NCBI GenBank assembly: GCA_000004985.1
Contig: GG738845.1
DNA length: 64,000 nt
From: Naegleria gruberi
Lineage: Eukaryota
Reading direction: 5' to 3' (one strand)
Numbering within the stretch: position 1 is the first letter of the stretch; each line of letters opens with the position of its first letter. The translations under genes and the position numbers were made by a program. Under the pieces are notes generated by a model that worked only from the letters and a program-made list of their open reading frames with translations, ran no database searches and was not told where the DNA came from. Shown piece by piece: positions 19,304 to 47,581 of this stretch.

Positions 19304-20104
19304 ATGGTTGAAGCCACTCCTATTATCAAAGTCAAAAACGCTTTAAAATTTTCAAAAATCCCAACAAGGCCAAAGAGATTCGACAAAGGTCTCTACCACG
19401 ACACATTAATTCAAACTGGTAACCAAAGAAGTTTTTCGGAAAGAAAAACTAAGAGAAAATGGATGCCAAACTCTCACTGGGTTAAACTTTATAGTGAAGC
19501 TTTGGATACTAGAGTTCAATTGAGAGCCACATCCAAGGCTTTGCGTTGTATTGACAAGTCAGGTGGTCTTGATAATTATTTAATTGAAACTAGACCAGAG
19601 CTTGTTGGATCAAGATATGGCATTTGGTTAAAGAGAAAGATTTTAGCACAACAAGTTGAAAATAAGAAGGAAAAGGAATTGAATGAACGTTTGGAATCAA
19701 CAGCACAAAGCTTGGCTACATTTTTGAAGGAAAATCCTTCCGAATATGAGCAAGTTATTAATTTTGAAAGACAGCAATCTAACGGAGAACAATTGCTTCA
19801 ATACTTTAACTCACTCTCTCAAGACCAACAAAATCATTTGTTAAAACTTCAAGAAACTGAAATTCAAAATTTGAAACAAGGTTTAAAGAAGAAGAACTTC
19901 TTAGCAACTCTCGAAAGAAAGAAGCCAAAACAAGTAAAGAAGGAAGAAAGAGAATTGAAGAAGAATACCTACGTTTACGATATCCACTTGAGTGAAGCAA
20001 AGAGACGAGCTCTCACTTCAAGAAGACAAAAGAATATTCAAGAATACGAAAAATTACAAAAGATGGGCAAGGCTCAAGATGCTGCTGTGCAAGAAAATAT
20101 ATAA
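19304..20104 (+). CDS. Mitochondrial ribosomal protein bL28m
   Basis: The bL28 signature GNQRSFSERKTKRKWMPNSHWVKLYSEALDTRVQLRATSKALRCIDKSGGLDNYL matches the GN.vShs..kTkR.w.PNl...l.se.l...v.lrvs.kalR.IdK.GGLD.YL pattern. The length and basic composition fit the mitochondrial L28/MRPL24 family. Confidence 0.7.
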   Translation: MVEATPIIKVKNALKFSKIPTRPKRFDKGLYHDTLIQTGNQRSFSERKTKRKWMPNSHWVKLYSEALDTRVQLRATSKALRCIDKSGGLDNYLIETRPELVGSRYGIWLKRKILAQQVENKKEKELNERLESTAQSLATFLKENPSEYEQVINFERQQSNGEQLLQYFNSLSQDQQNHLLKLQETEIQNLKQGLKKKNFLATLERKKPKQVKKEERELKKNTYVYDIHLSEAKRRALTSRRQKNIQEYEKLQKMGKAQDAAVQENI

Positions 20105-20191: not shown

Positions 20192-21507
20192 ATGAAACAA
20201 GCTCTGATATCAAAGATAAAAGCCAAAAAGCAAGAAGTTGTAAAATTTGATGAATCTAGTGACGAAGAAGAATCAAATATTACCATTCCACAACCAAGTT
20301 TAAAGAGGGCCCCTTCAAAATCGATACAACAATCAAACAAAAAAATCAAAACATCTTTTGCTTGGAATAACATCCCAACTTCTACAGCTGCTATCACCAA
20401 CAATATCAAAACATTAGAAACTCCCTCCGATGAGGAATCTGATGAGGAATCTGACTATGAAGAAAAGGAGGAATCCACCTCACCTCATAAACACATCATG
20501 ATGTTCACCACCTTACCGAAACAGAAATTGCAGAAATAGAAGAGTCTTTACCAAACAAGGCACCAACCAGTGAAGCAGATTTTGAGAGATTAGTTATAGG
20601 TGAACCAAATAATTCATTTTTATGGATTCAATACATGACATTTATGTTGAACACTTATGGATTCGAAAAAGCTAAGGAAATTGGTGAAAGGGCTGTTAAT
20701 AGAATACACTTCTCCAAGGAAAATGAACGTTTCAATTTGTGGAGTGCAATACTCAGTCTGTATGTGTCAAATAATAGAGGTAATGTGGACAGTGTAATTG
20801 AAAAGGCACTCCAAGGTGCTAGTAAGCCACATCTTATTTATCTACAATACGCAAAGATTTTGAACAAGTTATACGAAAAGAAGAAGCAAAGAATGGATGC
20901 AACTGAAGAGGAAGAAGATTCACAAAGTGAAAATGAGGAAGATGAAGAATTAAAAAACAAGAGAGCTAATGAACTAGAAGAATTACTCACTAAAATTGAC
21001 CAAGTTTATAGAAAGGCCTGTAAAAAATATAGAAATGAAAAGAAGGTATTTGAAGAATATGAACAGTGGTGTATTTCAACATTAAAGGACATCAAAAAAG
21101 CTGAACATGTATTGAATAGATCTTTGAAGGTTTATCCACAAAAAGAACACATTTCCCTCAAATCCAAGTTTGCAATCATTTTATACAAGTGTGAAAATAC
21201 TATTGAGGCAAGAAATGCCATGGAAAACATAATACAAAATAGTCCAAAGAGATCTGATGCATGGTCGATATATTTAGATTGTGAACAACAACATACTAAT
21301 GACCAGAGATATATCAGAGAGTTGTTTGAGCGTGTGTGCAATCTCACAACTCTTTCCACAAAAAAGATGAAATCATTCCTGCAAAGATATCTAAAGTTTG
21401 AAACACAACATGGTGATTCAGAGAGGCAAGAACACGTCAAACAAATTGCCAAAGAATATATCCAAAGCAAACTTGAAAAATCCAAGATTGATACTAATAA
21501 AGATTAA
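20192..21507 (+). CDS. RRP5/PDCD11-like protein comprising only the C-terminal HAT-repeat domain (two ORFs, 20192..20539 and a frame-shifted 20491..21507)
   Basis: The downstream frame reads ..EIAEIEESLPNKAPTSEADFERLVIGEPNNSFLWIQYMTFMLNTYGFEKAKEIGERA.. and ..SDAWSIYLDCEQQHTNDQRYIRELFERVCNLTTLSTKKMKSFLQRYLKFETQHGD... These align with the PDCD11/Rrp5 C-terminal HAT region ([25 protein letters not shown].. and ..TDVWSVYIDM..KRMKFFFKRYLDYEKQHG). There are no S1 domains upstream. The upstream acidic/K-rich ORF ends at TAG 20537..20539, in a frame offset from the HAT frame. Confidence 0.65.
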
Positions 21508-21713
21508 TTCCACTTTAAAACATAGCCTGTGTGGTAAATATTGTATTCTTGTAAAGTTTTTGTATAGTCAACCTCCTTTCCACAATAATATAAACATGAT
21601 CCAGAAGCTGAAGATAGCATAATTACTCTTTCTTTGAGGTCTTGGAAAGTATCTACCGATGCCTCACACTCTATGAAGAGTATTTTGTTTTGTGTCTTGA
21701 CAAATATTTTCAT
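21504..21713 (-). CDS. Small stand-alone ubiquitin-like protein (69 aa, no C-terminal Gly-Gly)
   Basis: MKIFVKTQNKILFIECEASVDTFQDLKERV...YTKTLQEYNIYHTGYVLKWN aligns with the ubiquitin fold (MQIFVKT....DYNI..). True ATG is at 21713. The ORF ends 3 nt before the end of the HAT gene on the other strand. Confidence 0.5.
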   Translation of the reverse strand: MKIFVKTQNKILFIECEASVDTFQDLKERVIMLSSASGSCLYYCGKEVDYTKTLQEYNIYHTGYVLKWN

Positions 21714-21737: not shown

Positions 21738-22295
21738 ATGAGTGATGAAGATTTGAGCGATTCGGAAAGTGAAAATAACCAAGAGGAAGACGAGGAATTT
21801 ACATCAGATGATGAACAGTTAACTGATAATGAATTTCAGGAATCAGATATAGAAGATACAATTCAAAGTGACGATAATATTGAAGAATTCGAACAAGGAC
21901 TAACAATATCTAATAGAATGAGAGTGAAACACGCACGTAAATTATTTTTCGATGACAAACAAAAACAATATAATTCAATAATAGCTAAAGAAGTTTCTCA
22001 AAAAGTTAAAGAAAAATGGACAGATATTATGGATACGGTAGGAGAACAATCAATGTTTGAGTTTAATATTTTAAAAAGTTTGGTAAATGGTGATAGTCAA
22101 TCTACCAAAGGGACTAGTACAACACATACAGAAGAATTAGAAATTAAACAAAAAGGAGATGAATGGGACTATACAATTGGATTGAAAGAGGAAATTGAGA
22201 AATCGCTCAACTCTATTGATGATAAGGAAGAAACAAGCGATACAGAAGAAAATGAATCAGAAGAGGACGAAGAAATTACTGATGATGAGGATTGA
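21738..22295 (+). CDS. Acidic protein of unknown function
   Basis: 185-aa ORF with ATG at 21738 in an A-rich context. The N- and C-termini are acidic Ser/Glu/Asp-rich, and the central region is K-rich. Confidence 0.45.
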   Translation: MSDEDLSDSESENNQEEDEEFTSDDEQLTDNEFQESDIEDTIQSDDNIEEFEQGLTISNRMRVKHARKLFFDDKQKQYNSIIAKEVSQKVKEKWTDIMDTVGEQSMFEFNILKSLVNGDSQSTKGTSTTHTEELEIKQKGDEWDYTIGLKEEIEKSLNSIDDKEETSDTEENESEEDEEITDDED

Positions 22296-34887: not shown

Positions 34888-37800
34888 TCAGAAAACTCTT
34901 GTTGGAAAGTACGTGNNNNNNNNNNNNNNNNNNNNNNNNNNNNNNNNNNNNNNNNNNNNNNNNNNGTAAATTCTCAAGGTACTATTAAGAGATTGATCAC
35001 CTTCCATAGCAAACCATTGGCTTCTGTTCTGGTAGTCAATTTGAAATCTTCCAGTTATATGTCCACTATTAATCATTTGAACACTCATTCTGTAAACATC
35101 ACCAACCATCAAAGACCCAAAATTACAGGAATTTGGAAACACTTGAATATTACTCAGACCTGGTTGAGGAGAGGGTGATGATATGGTTTCTCTTGTAATT
35201 GAAGATTTTTGCATATCACTCCTAGATGGAAGTTTCTTTTCCATGGTTTTTTGAGGTTGGTTTGGTGTTTTCATGGAGGATGTTTTCACCTTGATTTTGG
35301 AAGGATCATGCAGAGATTTGTATTCATCATTTGGAACGGCTTCAGCAGTTTTGATGAATGATTTCTTGAACCAAACCGATTTGCTAACATTTTCCACAGA
35401 ATAAAAACTTGGATCTTGAGAGTTTCCTTTTCTAGTCGATTCGGTTTTGGTATCGTAATTGTCTCCTTCGTTGTGGACTGGTAAATAATTGGGTTCTATA
35501 TTTTCGTTCTCTGAATACTCTTCATTAGTTTCTACACTTGCCTCTTCATTGGATTGTTCTGGAAGGCTTTCATTCTTTTCCTTTTTTTCCTTCTTTGGAA
35601 TTCCTAACACCAACGTTTTCCAAACTTCTAAAGCTTCAGGTTCGTGCCAGTATTTAGGAGTATTGCTATTTTTCTTTTCCTGCTTGTACTCATTAATGTT
35701 TAGCCCTCTATCTTTTTCTATTTCATCTTTTTTAACCACTTGAATGACTGTAAAATCCTCAGGATTCTGTTCCTCCTCTATTGGTGCTTCCTTTTCAAAG
35801 ATGTTATTTTCGGAGAATATAGTTGTTAATTCATTCTTGATTTCTTCTTCCTTTTGCTTTTGGTCTTCACTCCTGATATCACCCTCTTCAGAATTTTCTT
35901 TTGAATATCCTTCTTTTCTTACTCTCCATTCTTTCCATCGATTGAATTTATCCCTTAATTTAGATCTATCATCTATTGACAGAGGTCTATACTTGTTGAA
36001 ATGCCTGTGATAGTATAGAGAAGGATCAGCCGTTTTCAGTCTGCCAAGAGGAATGACAGCTTTTGGTAGGGAGTAATAATTTTCGGGGCTTTCCAAATAT
36101 TTAGTTCCTTGATCGTATTTAGTATAGATATGAACAGAAGAAACACTTCTAAACTCTCCAACCATATCTTCAGAAATATTAATCTTCTCAGGATTCGATC
36201 TTGATGCATCAGTAAATGGCGCAATAAAGCTTTCTGGAAGATACTCAAAAGCATATGAACCTTTCATGGATAACTCAAAAAGTCGAGGTTGAATTAAGAA
36301 TTTGTGACTGTTGTCCTTTGGAATTTCTCCAATAACAGAAACAGGAGGTAATCCAATTTTGTTCTTTTTGAAATAATTGATAAGAGACTGAGAAAGTGCA
36401 TATGTTTCCATGTCTTCTTGAGTACCATCTGTTTCCTCAGCCGTGATACCATTTGACTCATCTTGTTCTGGTGGTATTGAGGAGCTCTTAGGTCTTTTAC
36501 TTCTGGAGACTTTTGGTGTACATGCTCTGCTTGCTTTTCTTTCTTCAATAAGCATTCTTTCGTTGTGAATATCCTTTTGATTTTTTTCACTTTCTTGATA
36601 GAATTTGATCATTGATCTACCTGTTCCTGTGACTACAAATTCATGGCCAACAATATCAATCATTTTCATTCCTCCATTCAAATAATCGAAAGAGTACATT
36701 CCAAAATAATACTTGGAGGACTTTTTTTGGAATCTTTCTTTGTTGATTGAGGTAAAGGATAAACTGGATGGCTCTAAATCAACAAAATTTTTTTCTAAAT
36801 CAATAGTAATCATATGACCTAGTTTGGAAAGGGTAAATTGCTTTCTGTCTCTGTAGGTAAATAAAGATTGGTCTGGAAGTTCATACAAAATCTTATCTTT
36901 GAGAATTTTAACACTTGCAAAACCGCTTCTTTCGATAAGGGTATAAAAATCATTAACATGAATAAACTCATCTTCATCTTCTTCGTCATCAACAAAAACT
37001 TGACCATGAACAACTGGACATCTCCAAATACGGAAGCCATCAGAATATTGAACCAGTTGAGAACTGTCACTGAAAATCACTTTCATAACTAAATCTTCTC
37101 TTACATGGACTTCTGCATCCTTCCATGCATCAACATTTTTAACATATTTAACAGTGTCTAAATTCAAAATAGTTCCATCTAATAGCTCTACACACCTTGC
37201 ACCTGTCGGGGCAGTCTTTAAGCATGAACCGTCAGAATTAAAGTGATGAATTTCGCTGCTTGGAAATAATGTTTGCGAAATATCCCCTTCAAATCTCCTT
37301 ATTATTGCTCCGTCTTTTGTTACAGTTAGAGAAAGCTCTCTTACAAGCTTCTTTTCAACTGTATCAGTAGTAGAGTTCCATATTTCAATTAATTCTTCTA
37401 CAGGATGTAAACTAATAGTCATCTTGTCAGTAGAATTTCTATCTAATCCTTTAAACCCAGTACCAAAAACCTTCTTCTTAGATTTTAATTGTGAGGGATA
37501 GAATTGATGGATAGATCCATCTTGCATTAAGCGTATTTGAAGGCCGTTATTGCAACTGAAGTCAACCTCTGTCGATTTAGCATCAACTTGGTCTTGTAAA
37601 AATGCTATTAGACTAGAATCATCCTCAAAAGAACAGGAAAAATATGACTTTCTTTTCAACATATTATGAGGATTATCCAAACTGTTAATGGTATTTTTAA
37701 ATCCAAAAACAAGCCCATCCTTTTCAACAGTACAAGAAATGCTCTTGTCTGTACAATATTCCGACTTTAGATAAATGATTGAACCATCACTTGGGTAAAG

Positions 37801-40173
37801 GTTGACTGTATCAATATAAATGTCTGCACCTTTGCCTTCAAATATATATCTTTCATTTTTAGGATCGAGAATGATATCATGAGGCACTTTTGGTAGATGT
37901 GGAAGGGGAAGTGCAAGAATATTTTGAATGGTTGAAGAGGTTTCCTGAGTATCTTTGTGATGATCTTCGTCTTCTGCTCCAAATTGAGACAATTTCTGTA
38001 TCCTTTTGTGACATTCATTATATTCCTTATCAAATTGAATTTTAAATTGATCTGAAAAATAGGTTTGATAGTTAGAAAACCACTCCAAAAAATACTCATT
38101 AAGGGAGAACCTTTTAAGCATGGAAATACGTTCGTATCTACAAGGCGGTACCTCATTGTAAAAAGCTAAAAGGACCGAATTATTCAACTCGTTATATTTT
38201 GAAATCAGGCTTGGCTTTTCAAATAATCCAATATATGAAATAACCTCAATCATTGTTTCAACATTAAAATGTTCTTCTACATTACGATCACCCAAGTCTA
38301 AATCAACTCCTTTCTCTCTTAGCATTTCCTCAAACTCCATCATTACTAATTCTTTGTCTACTTCTTCTCTAGAATATTTGTAAGGTCCATGAATATCCTC
38401 GTCCTTTCCAGAAAGGAAGTGATAAATTTCTGTTTTTATACTCACTCTCTCTTCTTCTGTTTCTATTGTAGCGGTTTGATTACTTAGCTCAGGAAATAAG
38501 TGAAGCATTCTAGTAACTTTTCTTTCAATGTCAATATTTGTTGTATCGTGATGTATTGGAATTGTGCAAAGAGCATGTTCTGATATTTTGGAGCCAAATG
38601 GTATTAATGACAAACCTCCCACCTTCTCCAAAGTATTTATGGCAGGTCTTTGCCTCTCTTTCAAATCAGATACTTCTAAAAAGTTTATGCTTGGGTTGAA
38701 AGCAGTGTGTAAAAGGTTAGTTAAGCTTTCTGTATAATCTTTGGTTAGTTTTTTATCATCTCCATTGGATGAGAGCTCATATTTATCTTCAACTGTTTTG
38801 ACCAGTTGTTCTATTAGACAATGAAGGATTACAGCTTCAGAACAGCAACTGTCTGGTATATTTTCGAGTAACTTGTTGTAATAACTCAAATCCAATATTG
38901 TATTTTCATCCGAAACATAAACTTGTTCAAGTTTTCCAATAGCTTTTTCGTAATCGTCATAACGATTCATAATTACTTGAGCATATTTTTCTAATGTGGA
39001 GAAAAATCTACCAACTTCTCTCTCTAAACTATCACCTGGATCAAATTTTGAGTTATCGTCATCATATGTATACTCAACGAAAGAATGATTGATTTGTAAA
39101 ATATTTCGAATAAATCCTGAAATATTTTCATCTCTCAATTTACAAGAATGTTCAATAATTTGGCAAAGTCTGGTATCTGGTTTAAAAGTAGATGTTGGTG
39201 TTGCTTGTGTTGATCCCTTCTTTTGAGAACCAGTTTTAGTAGCACTCTTGGGACGTTTTGCGTCAGTGCTTTTTGGACGTTTTTTCTTGTCACCAAGTCT
39301 TTGTGAAAGATCTTCGTCCATTATTGGGGGAGGACCTCTTTTCTTTTCTTTTCCCAACTTAACAACACAATCAAAGTTTACCCCACAATCCATTAATAAA
39401 TTAATATCTTCTTTTGTTGCTGGAAAATCTTTGAACAAAAAGTAGAGAATGGGCTCATTCTTAACAATAAAACCTTCTTCTCTTGGGGTGATTGCTGCAT
39501 TTTCGATAATTTGATTGGAAATTTCTTGTTCATTATTAATTATTGCTTGTTCGGAAGGTTTTTTGTTTTTGTCAAATTTTTCTTTTTCCTTTCTTTTTTC
39601 CTCCTCTTTCTTTTGTAAATCTACTTGCTTTTTCTTTTCATCTTCAGATTTCTTTTTTAAATAATCATCTATCTGGAAAGAAATAAACCTTTTGTAAATG
39701 AGCCCAATTAGCCTCTTTCTATCATTTTTTAGCTCTGAAAGTCTATTTTGTTTTGCTTGCTCCTCTGCTTCCGGATTTTTTGATGTTTTTGAGTTGCCCA
39801 TCAATTTTGTTTCTTCAGCCAAATTCTTTTCATATTCTGCATATTCTTCAAATTTTTGTATTTTGGCTCCTTGTATTACTTCATTATATATTAATACTCG
39901 GAATTTGCTGGTGTCGATGGATGAATGAATTGTGGTGAAATTTCCAAATATTGTTTCTAAAAGAGATTCCCTCTCCTCTGCCTCTAATTGTTGGATAGCA
40001 TCAGGAGATAAACTTTCATTCAGTGGAGTTACTGGAGTAGATGATGGAACTTTAAGTGTTTCCGAAGGTGTATTTTGATTTGTTGGTTCCTGAGAAACAA
40101 GAGGATAATCGGTATCCAAAAAATAAGAAAAGTAACGAAAATCCCTCTCGTAAGGTTTTTGGATATGTCTCAT
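34888..40173 (-). CDS. Very large (~1760 aa) protein, probably flagellar, with a C-terminal ASH/PapD-like beta domain (SPAG17/PF6-like candidate). The 3' end is interrupted by an assembly gap
   Basis: Uninterrupted minus-strand ORF. The track start at 40182 is TTG, and the first ATG is at 40173 (MRHIQKPYERD). It has K/E-rich stretches. The segments ..PILYFLFKDFPATKEDINLLMDCGVNFDCVVKLG.. and ..EAVILHCLIEQLVKTVEDK.. resemble SPAG17 N-terminal blocks. That comparison is from memory and is not verified. The C-terminal ..PNSCNFGSLMVGDVYRMSVQMINSGHITGRFQIDY.. resembles an ASH/MSP-like fold. The N-run 34916..34965 lies inside the 3' end. Confidence 0.45.
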   Translation of the reverse strand: MRHIQKPYERDFRYFSYFLDTDYPLVSQEPTNQNTPSETLKVPSSTPVTPLNESLSPDAIQQLEAEERESLLETIFGNFTTIHSSIDTSKFRVLIYNEVIQGAKIQKFEEYAEYEKNLAEETKLMGNSKTSKNPEAEEQAKQNRLSELKNDRKRLIGLIYKRFISFQIDDYLKKKSEDEKKKQVDLQKKEEEKRKEKEKFDKNKKPSEQAIINNEQEISNQIIENAAITPREEGFIVKNEPILYFLFKDFPATKEDINLLMDCGVNFDCVVKLGKEKKRGPPPIMDEDLSQRLGDKKKRPKSTDAKRPKSATKTGSQKKGSTQATPTSTFKPDTRLCQIIEHSCKLRDENISGFIRNILQINHSFVEYTYDDDNSKFDPGDSLEREVGRFFSTLEKYAQVIMNRYDDYEKAIGKLEQVYVSDENTILDLSYYNKLLENIPDSCCSEAVILHCLIEQLVKTVEDKYELSSNGDDKKLTKDYTESLTNLLHTAFNPSINFLEVSDLKERQRPAINTLEKVGGLSLIPFGSKISEHALCTIPIHHDTTNIDIERKVTRMLHLFPELSNQTATIETEEERVSIKTEIYHFLSGKDEDIHGPYKYSREEVDKELVMMEFEEMLREKGVDLDLGDRNVEEHFNVETMIEVISYIGLFEKPSLISKYNELNNSVLLAFYNEVPPCRYERISMLKRFSLNEYFLEWFSNYQTYFSDQFKIQFDKEYNECHKRIQKLSQFGAEDEDHHKDTQETSSTIQNILALPLPHLPKVPHDIILDPKNERYIFEGKGADIYIDTVNLYPSDGSIIYLKSEYCTDKSISCTVEKDGLVFGFKNTINSLDNPHNMLKRKSYFSCSFEDDSSLIAFLQDQVDAKSTEVDFSCNNGLQIRLMQDGSIHQFYPSQLKSKKKVFGTGFKGLDRNSTDKMTISLHPVEELIEIWNSTTDTVEKKLVRELSLTVTKDGAIIRRFEGDISQTLFPSSEIHHFNSDGSCLKTAPTGARCVELLDGTILNLDTVKYVKNVDAWKDAEVHVREDLVMKVIFSDSSQLVQYSDGFRIWRCPVVHGQVFVDDEEDEDEFIHVNDFYTLIERSGFASVKILKDKILYELPDQSLFTYRDRKQFTLSKLGHMITIDLEKNFVDLEPSSLSFTSINKERFQKKSSKYYFGMYSFDYLNGGMKMIDIVGHEFVVTGTGRSMIKFYQESEKNQKDIHNERMLIEERKASRACTPKVSRSKRPKSSSIPPEQDESNGITAEETDGTQEDMETYALSQSLINYFKKNKIGLPPVSVIGEIPKDNSHKFLIQPRLFELSMKGSYAFEYLPESFIAPFTDASRSNPEKINISEDMVGEFRSVSSVHIYTKYDQGTKYLESPENYYSLPKAVIPLGRLKTADPSLYYHRHFNKYRPLSIDDRSKLRDKFNRWKEWRVRKEGYSKENSEEGDIRSEDQKQKEEEIKNELTTIFSENNIFEKEAPIEEEQNPEDFTVIQVVKKDEIEKDRGLNINEYKQEKKNSNTPKYWHEPEALEVWKTLVLGIPKKEKKEKNESLPEQSNEEASVETNEEYSENENIEPNYLPVHNEGDNYDTKTESTRKGNSQDPSFYSVENVSKSVWFKKSFIKTAEAVPNDEYKSLHDPSKIKVKTSSMKTPNQPQKTMEKKLPSRSDMQKSSITRETISSPSPQPGLSNIQVFPNSCNFGSLMVGDVYRMSVQMINSGHITGRFQIDYQNRSQWFAMEGDQSLNSTLRIYXXXXXXXXXXXXXXXXXTYFPTRVF
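34916..34965. other. Assembly gap (50 N)
   Basis: A run of 50 'n' characters. It lies inside the 3' end of the large minus-strand gene. Confidence 0.99.
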
Positions 40174-40259
40174 TATGATCAATTTTTTTTAAATTTATTG
40201 TACGTTTTAATGGCGGGAAATGTTTTTTCAAAATTACAATTTTGTTCTACGGAAATAAC

Positions 40260-45303: not shown

Positions 45304-47581
45304 ATGTTGAATAACCATCTTCACGATCAAACCACTGGAACATCATCAAATCGTCTTCAATCGGAAGATAAAAAAAGGAAAAAGAAAGAAAAAGAAGCAA
45401 AAAAGAAGAAGCAAAAATATGAGGAAATTTTAAACGATCTAGATAATGAAGTAGCAAAAAAAGCCCAGGAAAAGCTTGTGAGTGATATTTTCAGTCAAAA
45501 GAAGGACGTTCAATTTGACCATTCAAATTTGGAATTAAAACCTGACCATAAACTCCGTCCAGTTTGGGTTTGTTCAGGTACTGATGGCAAATTTCATATT
45601 TTCATGGAGACCTTTTCACCAATTTATCAACAGGCTTATGATTTTCTTGTTGCTGTTGCTGAACCTGTTTCACGTCCTGAAAATCTACACGAATATGTAT
45701 TAACTGAATATTCTCTCTATGCAGCTGTCAGTATTGGTATGAACACCGAACAAATTATTCAAGTTTTGGAGAAGCTAAGTAAGGTTAAATTATCCGAAGC
45801 TCTCATCAATTTTATTAGAGATGTAACAAGAAAATATGGTAATGTAAAATTAGTTCTGCAGAAAAATAGATTTTTCGTAGAGTCACCCCATTTGACTATC
45901 ATGGAAAAGTTATATGAAGATAAAATCATTAGTGCAGCTGCTATTGTTCCTGATCCAAATGAGTTTCCAAATGTTGATAGATCCAAAAGATTTATTATTA
46001 GAACACGATCAAAACAAAATGAATTGGAAAAGTTTCAAAAGCAAGCTCTTGCTAATACATCAACTGTAAATAAGGGATCTAAAATTCAAACTGAAATGAT
46101 AAGAGCTGTAAATCAAATTGGAGATGATGAAGATGATGATGCTGATGATGATTTTGATATTTCTTCAGCAGTTGAAACGTTTTATTTATTCGAAATTAAT
46201 CCAACAGAGGTTGAACATGTGAAAAAGCAATGCATTCAGATNNNNNNNNNNNNNNNNNNNNNNNNNNNNNNNNNNNNNNNNNNNNNNNNNNAGTCAGTGT
46301 ATTGAATGGAAGAATCAATTTAAATTATGGAGTACTATTGATGAGAATCGTGTAGTAGTATTTACTTCTCAGGAGAAGGATGCTTTACCAAAAGATGATG
46401 ATCCCTTAATCATCATTACAACATACACTATGATTACCCATACCAGAAAGAGAAGTGGTGAGGCAAAGGAGGTTATGGATTACATTCAAAGTAGAGAATG
46501 GGGATTATTAATTTTAGATGAGGTCCACGTCGTTCCCGCCAACATGTTTAGACATGTTGCGAGTGTAAAGTCTCATTGTAAATTAGGATTGACAGCCACT
46601 CTTTTACGTGAAGATAACAAGACAGACGATTTATATTTTTTAATTGGTCCAAAATTATATGAAGCTAATTGGCTTGATTTACAACAAAAAGGCCATCTTG
46701 CTAATGTGCAATGTGTGGAAGTTTGGTGTCCCATGACTGCCGAGTTTTTTGCTGAATACTTAACAGCCAATGCTAAGAAAAAGACTTTACTTTATGTTAT
46801 GAATCCAAATAAGTTTAGAGCTTGTGAATTTCTGATTAGATACCATGAAAAGCAAGGAGACAAAATCATTGTTTTTAGTGACAATGTTTTTGCTCTCCAA
46901 GAATATGCTGAAAAGTTGGGGGTACCCTACATTTTTGGTAATACCAAACAACAAGAACGTGTTTATTATTTGAACCAGTTCAGAAATACTAACCATTATA
47001 ACACTATTTTCATCAGTAAGGTTGGTGATACAGCAATTGACATTCCTGAGGCAACTGTGATTATTCAAATATCATCTCATTTTGGTAGTAGAAGACAGGA
47101 GGCTCAACGTTTGGGTCGTATCCTTCGTCCAAAAGGTGGTGGACTTAAAAATCAACAGGCCTACTTTTACACACTAGTTTCTCAAGATACACAAGAAATG
47201 TTCTTCTCCACAAAGAGACAACAATTTTTAATTAATCAAGGCTACAGCTTTAGAGTCTTGCCTGATATTCAAAAGTATTACAGGCAAGGTGCTAATGAAA
47301 TGGGTCTAACTCTCAAACACATGAATACCAAGAAGGAAGAATTAGACATGTTGGCTATTGTAAAAAAGGCTGAAGATGCAAGAGGCCAAGAAGAAAAGAT
47401 CAACGTTGATGATGAAGTTGAAAAATCATCTAGTAGTCTTGCTTCAATCTCTGGTGGAAATGAAATTTATTACCATTCCTATGAAGCTTCTACAACAACT
47501 TCCAGAAGAAGAGGTAAAGCTACCAAAGTTCCTTCTACTGTGCATCCACTTTTCAAAACCAGAACCCAACACAAGGATTAA
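45304..47581 (+). CDS. ERCC3: TFIIH helicase subunit XPB/ERCC3/SSL2 (interrupted by an assembly gap)
   Basis: N-terminal XPB block (..[60 protein letters not shown]..). The helicase motifs are ..[22 protein letters not shown].., ..[10 protein letters not shown].. and a helicase-C region (..[41 protein letters not shown]). The 50-N gap 46242..46291 splits the coding sequence. Confidence 0.9.
46242..46291. other. Assembly gap (50 N) inside the XPB gene
   Basis: A run of 50 'n' characters. The reading frame across the gap cannot be verified. Confidence 0.99.

Follow-up and report, generated by a model that had tools for sequence, protein, structure and literature searches.

The 64,000-nt stretch of Naegleria gruberi DNA analysed here (GenBank assembly GCA_000004985.1, contig GG738845.1; hereafter the window) carries at 20192–21507, on the plus strand, a homologue of Rrp5/PDCD11 whose coding sequence is spread over two overlapping reading frames. 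The locus raises two questions: whether the change of frame belongs to the organism or to the reference sequence, and whether an Rrp5 gene devoid of S1 RNA-binding repeats is complete. An earlier note on this DNA had offered an assembly indel, a natural split and a recoding event as explanations of the break. Comparison with orthologues gives the best support to the first of these, and we consider it most likely that the reference is one base short at 20488–20494, either through a sequencing or assembly error or because a defective allele was assembled. The interval would then represent one 438-codon gene, the heterolobosean Rrp5, whose product would start with a disordered K-rich/acidic linker bearing a conserved FxW motif and continue through a short helix into a seven-repeat TPR/HAT solenoid, with no S1 domain. 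In biological terms the frameshift is probably without interest; the HAT-only form of Rrp5 is real and mildly novel.

Position of the frame break

The upstream frame, as given in the list of open reading frames (ORFs), extends over 115 codons from the ATG at 20192, which has an in-frame stop 11 codons 5' of it, to the TAG at 20537–20539. The second frame (hereafter the HAT frame) is preceded by a TAA at 20488–20490, is open from 20491 to the stop codon TAA at 21505–21507 and has its earliest ATG at 20635. It is -1/+2 relative to the upstream frame and the two share 49 nt (20491–20539), so that the layout described in the earlier note, with its acidic/K-rich upstream ORF, was confirmed in these respects. 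The ORF starting at 20635 (20635–21507) is 100% identical to the public 290-amino acid (aa) 'RRP5 protein [Naegleria gruberi]' (P0001).

Where the two frames should be joined was determined by comparison with orthologous DNA. The upstream and HAT frames align with the N- and C-terminal parts of the orthologues, respectively, and the sequence switches from ...STSPHK in the upstream frame to THHDVHHLTETEIAEIEESLPNK... in the HAT frame (junction ...SPHK/THHDVHH), with the N. gruberi bases 'CCT CAT AAA CAC ATC ATG ATG TT' facing 'GCC AAA ACT CAT CAT CAT CAC CAT GAT GTT' in N. lovaniensis. When the bases at 20492–20539 are read in the HAT frame they give the invariant HHDVHHLTETEIAEIEE, which differs from the orthologues only synonymously; against the three Naegleria orthologues the HAT-frame codons at 20494–20544 show 6–9 synonymous and no nonsynonymous differences. 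Since it is the HAT frame that specifies the conserved HHDVHHLTETEIAEIEE from 20494 onwards, the break must lie within 20488–20494 (in 'T AAA CAC'), through the absence of a single base or the presence of two surplus ones. The earlier note had looked for an indel within 20515–20540, which is off by about 30–45 nt. The end of the upstream frame (20492–20539), which reads HIMMFTTLPKQKLQK followed by the TAG, has no counterpart in the orthologues and is a spurious, non-coding tail.

Only a 1-base insertion at 20488–20494 or a 2-nt deletion at 20487–20495 yields one ORF and at the same time keeps HHDVHH; candidate repairs are, for example, AAAA in place of AAA, or CAC-CAT in place of CAC-AT. With one added A, an ORF of 438 codons is obtained that is colinear with all orthologues. 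Apart from this break there is no lesion in either segment: each is open and runs colinear with the orthologues.

The 47 HAT-frame codons located between the break and the annotated ATG (20494–20634) were compared with the orthologues. They display 19–22 synonymous versus 0–2 nonsynonymous codon differences; the proportion of differences is 0.69–0.75 at synonymous sites (pS) and 0.01–0.06 at nonsynonymous sites (pN), with pN/pS of 0.01–0.09, the strongest constraint in the gene. The peptide that they specify takes in a short N-terminal helix with the sequence ETEIAEIEE, then EADFERLVIG as helix 1 of the TPR/HAT repeats, and helix 2 up to its middle. In the AlphaFold2 (AF2) model, helices occupy residues 10–18, 28–37 and 42–56, and the annotated start, Met49, falls inside the third. 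Structures of the yeast Rrp5 TPR domain begin at the block that these 47 codons encode (PMC6168700). Constraint being strongest over these 47 ATG-less codons, they must be translated, and therefore the public 290-aa model is truncated; the practical consequence is that the N. gruberi 'RRP5 protein' should have 438 codons (438 aa). The missing base would have split the ORF artificially, after which annotators would have taken the internal Met encoded at 20635 as the start.

Alternative explanations of the break

Several points weigh against a base missing from the reference. The break site is an A3 run in a CA-rich stretch and not a long homopolymer; the public annotation has the identical break; and the error is deduced from orthologous sequences, not observed. 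Neither the 115-aa nor the 290-aa product was found by exact look-up in protein records, and two metagenome scans yielded no contig of the N. gruberi clade, only a GC-rich locus with an ordinary Rrp5 (L008). As to the gene product, the molecular function proposed below is transferred from yeast.

A real mutation, present in all copies of the sequenced strain, would leave the gene broken or able to make only the 290-aa product from the ATG at 20635. The presence of the break in both the public assembly and its annotation (P0001, 290 aa), at a site that is not a classic error-prone homopolymer, would be in keeping with such a mutation. We nevertheless regard it as improbable: Rrp5 is essential in yeast (PMC6168700) and one N. 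gruberi homologue was found, the 290-aa product would start inside a helix of the first repeat and lack the invariant D-F-E-R-L...P-N-S...W-I-Q-Y block, and the 47 codons thus skipped are the most constrained in the gene. Moreover, since neither half carries a further lesion, the mutation would have to be extremely recent.

It is far less probable still that the sequence is right and that the two frames are joined by a programmed -1 (or +2) frameshift, at CAT-AAA-C or at AAA-TAG, or by polymerase slippage or editing. The shift needed is -1, the usual direction for programmed frameshifting, and the upstream frame ends in AAA-TAG, the type of motif used in Euplotes. However, no frameshift signal was detected: there is no X_XXY_YYZ heptamer anywhere in 20485–20539 (which reads CCT CAT AAA CAC ATC ATG ATG TTC ACC ACC TTA CCG AAA CAG AAA TTG CAG AAA TAG in the upstream frame), and the 99 nt downstream (20492–20590) have a folding energy of -7.8 kcal/mol (z = +1.23), 182 of 200 shuffled sequences folding at least as well. 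None of the five heterolobosean orthologues has a frameshift at this place, and the HAT frame plainly encodes the invariant HHDVHHLTETEIAEI, which would be exchanged for other residues if the shift took place at AAA-TAG. Transcriptional slippage, for its part, would require a longer run of A than the three present here.

Finally, it is hardly credible that the gene is naturally split, giving an acidic peptide of 115 aa and a HAT protein of 290 aa, or that an unusual intron joins its parts, in spite of the two ORFs, which are present as the earlier note described, and of the modularity of yeast Rrp5 (PMC6168700): the 47 conserved codons have no start codon of their own and in a split gene would stay untranslated despite the strongest constraint, the orthologues are unsplit and intronless at the break point, and an enumeration of all donor/acceptor pairs yielded no canonical intron that joins the frames while keeping the conserved residues, the sole nearby GT (20503) and AG (20570) defining a 68-nt intron that has a poor GTTCAC donor and would remove the invariant block.

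Identity of the two parts of the protein

The earlier note had assigned the C-terminal ORF to the HAT/TPR region of Rrp5, starting from the 'ADFERLV..PNSS.LW.QYM' block. Pfam, profile, PDB and Foldseek comparisons bear this out, and by both sequence and fold the ORF is a genuine Rrp5/PDCD11 TPR/HAT domain. Pfam alone returns only generic HAT/TPR families. A profile built from the protein and its close relatives retrieved 3116 homologues from 1.84 billion representative proteins; once the protein's own relatives and short or truncated entries are set aside, the best matches are Rrp5 proteins of 1400–2200 aa, aligned at their extreme C-terminus. A search seeded with 51 of the long proteins returned proteins named Rrp5/PDCD11 (best 120 matches listed). 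All long matches of the profile are Rrp5, and one N. gruberi protein with this domain was seen in the homologue search.

A comparison with PDB sequences matched constructs of the yeast Rrp5 TPR domain and chains of the small-subunit (SSU) processome at E-values of 3e-39 to 6e-35; other HAT proteins (Crooked neck, CstF-77) reached no better than 2e-7. The AF2 model of the 338-aa HAT-frame translation has a predicted local distance difference test (pLDDT) score of 92 and a predicted template modelling (TM) score (pTM) of 0.84. When it was compared with the PDB by Foldseek, the top seven matches were all Rrp5 TPR domains (TMt 0.70–0.88, six of them at 0.82–0.88). The next fold, the HAT domain of SART3, scored far lower, and TM did not exceed 0.46 for other HAT proteins.

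The start of the TPR module bears a signature, a short helix followed by D-F/Y-E-R-L..(S/E)PN(S/N)S..W(I/V).YM, that is invariant in three of our alignments (A1, A3 and A4) and pairs with the yeast TPR chain 7suk_NJ from residue 1. The window encodes this signature solely 5' of the annotated ATG; the part at 20635–21507, that is the public 290-aa model, is the remainder of the domain. Crooked neck/Clf1, CstF-77, SART3 and Prp39 resemble the protein in being built of the half-a-TPR helical repeat and in giving weak Pfam HAT matches. Orthology to them was rejected (PDB E-values of 2e-7 or worse versus 3e-39; Foldseek TM of 0.46 or less versus about 0.85).

Codons 1–100 (20192–20491, upstream frame) specify the start Met, a K-rich N-terminus and an acidic/Ser-rich linker. 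In the protein alignment the N-terminus MKQALISKIKAKK pairs with MNKQALLKKLSAAKK of the orthologues. The segment is fast-evolving (pN/pS 0.6–0.7) and no Pfam domain was found in it. It contains the motif KKIKTSFAWN (20339–20368), detected by tblastx with 90% identity to N. fowleri and N. lovaniensis. The SFAWN part (20354–20368), set in an acidic/Ser-rich stretch, matches GFxW in the consensus of the 51 full-length Rrp5 proteins; the corresponding residues are FQWN or FQWD in Acrasis-type proteins and GFNWDG or GFKWDG in full-length Rrp5, where the GFxW motif comes after the final S1 domain and before the TPR domain. The N-terminal 100 residues, FxW motif included, are homologous to the acidic linker of full-length Rrp5.

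An Rrp5 without S1 domains in Heterolobosea

Is the gene, once repaired, complete? The earlier note had counted a mini-Rrp5 among the possibilities, and indeed the same S1-less ORF, made up of linker and HAT/TPR domain only, was found in Naegleria, Willaertia and Acrasis. The orthologues have 487 aa in N. fowleri, 480 aa in N. lovaniensis, 484 aa in an environmental Naegleria and 453 aa in Willaertia magna, and the profile search added two proteins labelled 'RRP5' from Acrasis kona (396 and 397 aa). The recurrence of this short architecture (acidic linker plus HAT domain, 396–487 aa) in five heterolobosean taxa shows that the HAT-only form of Rrp5 is genuine and common to Heterolobosea.

One intronless ORF makes up the gene in N. 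fowleri, N. lovaniensis and the environmental Naegleria, and in all three it follows directly on the bL28m gene, as in the window. There, bL28m (19304–20104, plus strand; Pfam Ribosomal_L28, E-value 3.6e-19; also in the ORF list) was correctly named as the adjacent gene by the earlier note, which put it 276 bp away; the spacer between its stop codon (20104) and the ATG at 20192 is actually 87 nt. The note had also considered that a mis-joined scaffold might have removed the S1 repeats. A mis-join is not the cause: the bL28m–Rrp5 pair and the S1-less single ORF recur in three other Naegleria genomes, and the S1-less ORF is present in Willaertia and Acrasis too. Synteny with N. fowleri (L001) and N. 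lovaniensis (L003) is confined to this pair, the other flanking genes being all different. In Willaertia and Acrasis the neighbours are others and the gene is again short, interrupted by a single small intron in Willaertia and intronless in Acrasis.

All orthologues have an in-frame stop 2–23 codons 5' of the ATG. A further close homologue, a 406-aa protein from a metatranscriptome, is encoded by a polyadenylated transcript of 1258 nt in which an in-frame TAA lies one codon 5' of the ATG; this transcript represents a complete HAT-only mRNA.

The search for S1 repeats upheld the claim that none are present in the window. With the N-terminal regions of 51 Rrp5 proteins as queries, tblastn found no S1 repeat in the window, nor in six loci from Heterolobosea (the search was negative in L001–L007 and L009), and the same search detected S1 repeats just 5' of the HAT region in loci L008 and L010, which served as controls. 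Likewise, Pfam found no S1/OB domain in the ORFs of the window, nor in the complete N. lovaniensis and Acrasis proteins, and as a control found S1 in all eight of eight other shortened Rrp5-like proteins (662–776 aa). The N-terminal FPRGG motif, present in the full-length consensus and in P0119 (see below), is absent from all heterolobosean N-termini.

A second gene coding for an Rrp5-type S1 array was found neither in the 64-kb window nor within 4.6–10 kb of the orthologues. A profile search with the 51 full-length Rrp5 sequences was uninformative on Naegleria, the best 120 matches listed being all fungal, animal or plant. Two long ORFs were considered as hidden S1 partners: an uninterrupted 1765-aa ORF of Acrasis kona (L009, 1838–7135, minus strand), which lies about 2.9 kb 5' of RRP5 and is missing from the called genes, and a 1764-aa ORF of the window (34888–40182, minus strand), which abuts the first N gap. 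Both were rejected, having no Pfam domain and no similarity to the Rrp5 N-terminus; they are also dissimilar to each other and their matching lengths are a coincidence. Among short homologues, P0007 (346 aa) was discarded as a fragment on account of the S1 repeats located 5' of it on its own contig (L010), and further short entries in the databases likewise represent incomplete models of long proteins.

Two observations concern the annotation of these orthologues. The Acrasis kona proteins KAL0484093.1 (396 aa) and KAL0482663.1 (397 aa) are near-identical HAT-only RRP5 copies on contigs of 108 and 9.8 kb, and reflect either a recent duplication or uncollapsed haplotypes. The P0004 gene of the environmental Naegleria (L004, 942–2396) is called from a position 33 codons 5' of the Met that is aligned with the conserved N-terminus MNKQALLKK, and this call is probably over-extended.

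Comparison with other forms of Rrp5

Yeast Rrp5 comprises 12 S1 domains and 7 TPR motifs, its N-terminal part being required for A3 cleavage and its C-terminal part for the A0–A2 cleavages (PMC6168700). With the yeast protein and human PDCD11 (1729 and 1871 aa, respectively) the Naegleria protein shares the C-terminal seven-repeat TPR/HAT solenoid (E-values of 1e-35 to 1e-39, TMt 0.82–0.88), the short helix preceding it, the D-F/Y-E-R-L...PNSS...W signature and the acidic linker with FxW. It differs from them in the absence of all 12 S1 domains and of the FPRGG motif, and in its size, 438 aa versus about 1700–1900 aa.

The earlier note had likened the locus to yeast Rrp5, which can function as separable halves. 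The modularity holds and the analogy is imprecise, since the yeast C-terminal fragments that complement in trans also carry S1 domains 10–12 (PMC6168700). Such a fragment resembles the Naegleria protein in being a stand-alone C-terminal Rrp5 module, which in yeast supports the A0–A2 cleavages (PMC6168700), but it keeps three RNA-binding S1 domains where the Naegleria protein has none.

The number of S1 domains in Rrp5 is known to vary between 1 and 14 across eukaryotes (PMC11641769). In a 2026 proteomics paper, trypanosomatid RRP5 was described as 'strikingly shorter', at 669–740 aa (PMC13248013). These proteins (679 aa in T. brucei, 669 aa in T. cruzi and about 740 aa in Leishmania) are, like those of Heterolobosea, short forms in a discobid lineage, and were found with components of the SSU processome (PMC13248013); compared by length and description only, they are about 200–300 aa longer than the heterolobosean proteins. 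Reduced forms of Rrp5 with two or three S1 domains occur in other eukaryotes as well (662–776 aa, including the 773-aa P0119). In these the S1 array is shortened and the linker and HAT domain are kept, as in Heterolobosea, whereas S1 was found in each of the eight proteins examined and in none of the heterolobosean ones. The S1-free Rrp5 conserved across Heterolobosea is thus the extreme of a known trend of S1 reduction. In the literature, no paper was found that describes an S1-less Rrp5 or that pairs Rrp5 with Naegleria, the proteins being labelled 'RRP5' in databases, and the S1-less architecture is not discussed in surveys of the SSU processome and of ribosome biogenesis factors.

P0119 belongs to a cluster of eight near-identical members from an AT-rich uncultured eukaryote, found on ENA/Logan contigs of up to 40 kb. 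It has an FPRG motif, only two S1 domains, an FKWE linker motif and the HAT domain, and is an independent case of S1-array reduction.

Possible role of the S1-less protein

Rrp5 is the one factor that physically couples the maturation of the 40S and 60S subunits, and in the yeast protein all measurable RNA binding comes from the S1 domains. The heterolobosean protein has kept exactly the protein-contact part of Rrp5, together with the linker. In yeast, the TPR part alone does not bind RNA in vitro, and cryo-electron microscopy places it next to Utp22/Rrp7 (PMC6168700). By analogy, heterolobosean Rrp5 is most likely a scaffold subunit of the 90S particle. It may act in the manner of the yeast TPR module, as a protein–protein scaffold in the 90S particle/SSU processome, beside Utp22–Rrp7 and as a cofactor of Rok1, the RNA contact being either lost or supplied by another polypeptide.

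A clade in which Rrp5 is cut down to linker and TPR domain amounts to a natural deletion experiment. It leads one to ask whether the S1 array is truly universal, whether it now resides in a different gene and of what the TPR module is capable by itself. That Heterolobosea make ribosomes without any S1 domain on Rrp5 and also without a separate S1-array partner is a conjecture that we think somewhat less likely than not. If it were true, the TPR/HAT scaffold would be the sole indispensable part of Rrp5, and the tethering of RNA by the S1 array at the first internal transcribed spacer (ITS1) and the A2–A3 sites would be either dispensable in Heterolobosea or taken over by an unrelated factor. 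Taken with the short trypanosomatid RRP5, the heterolobosean form suggests that Discoba process ITS1 differently.

Other features of the window

The window contains two runs of exactly 50 N (34916–34965 and 46242–46291), and because of these scaffold gaps it can be taken to come from a draft assembly, which is in keeping with a base missing from the reference at the Rrp5 gene. Downstream of the Rrp5 gene and convergent to it lies a 69-aa ubiquitin-like ORF (21504–21713, minus strand; Pfam ubiquitin, E-value 1.7e-4, below the gathering score), the 3' end of which covers 4 nt at the Rrp5 stop codon. In its place, the N. fowleri and N. lovaniensis loci have a gene for a 367–373-aa protein without Pfam domain. 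The ubiquitin-like ORF is followed in the window by a 185-aa ORF (21738–22295, plus strand) that has no Pfam domain and is extremely acidic (D/E/S-rich).

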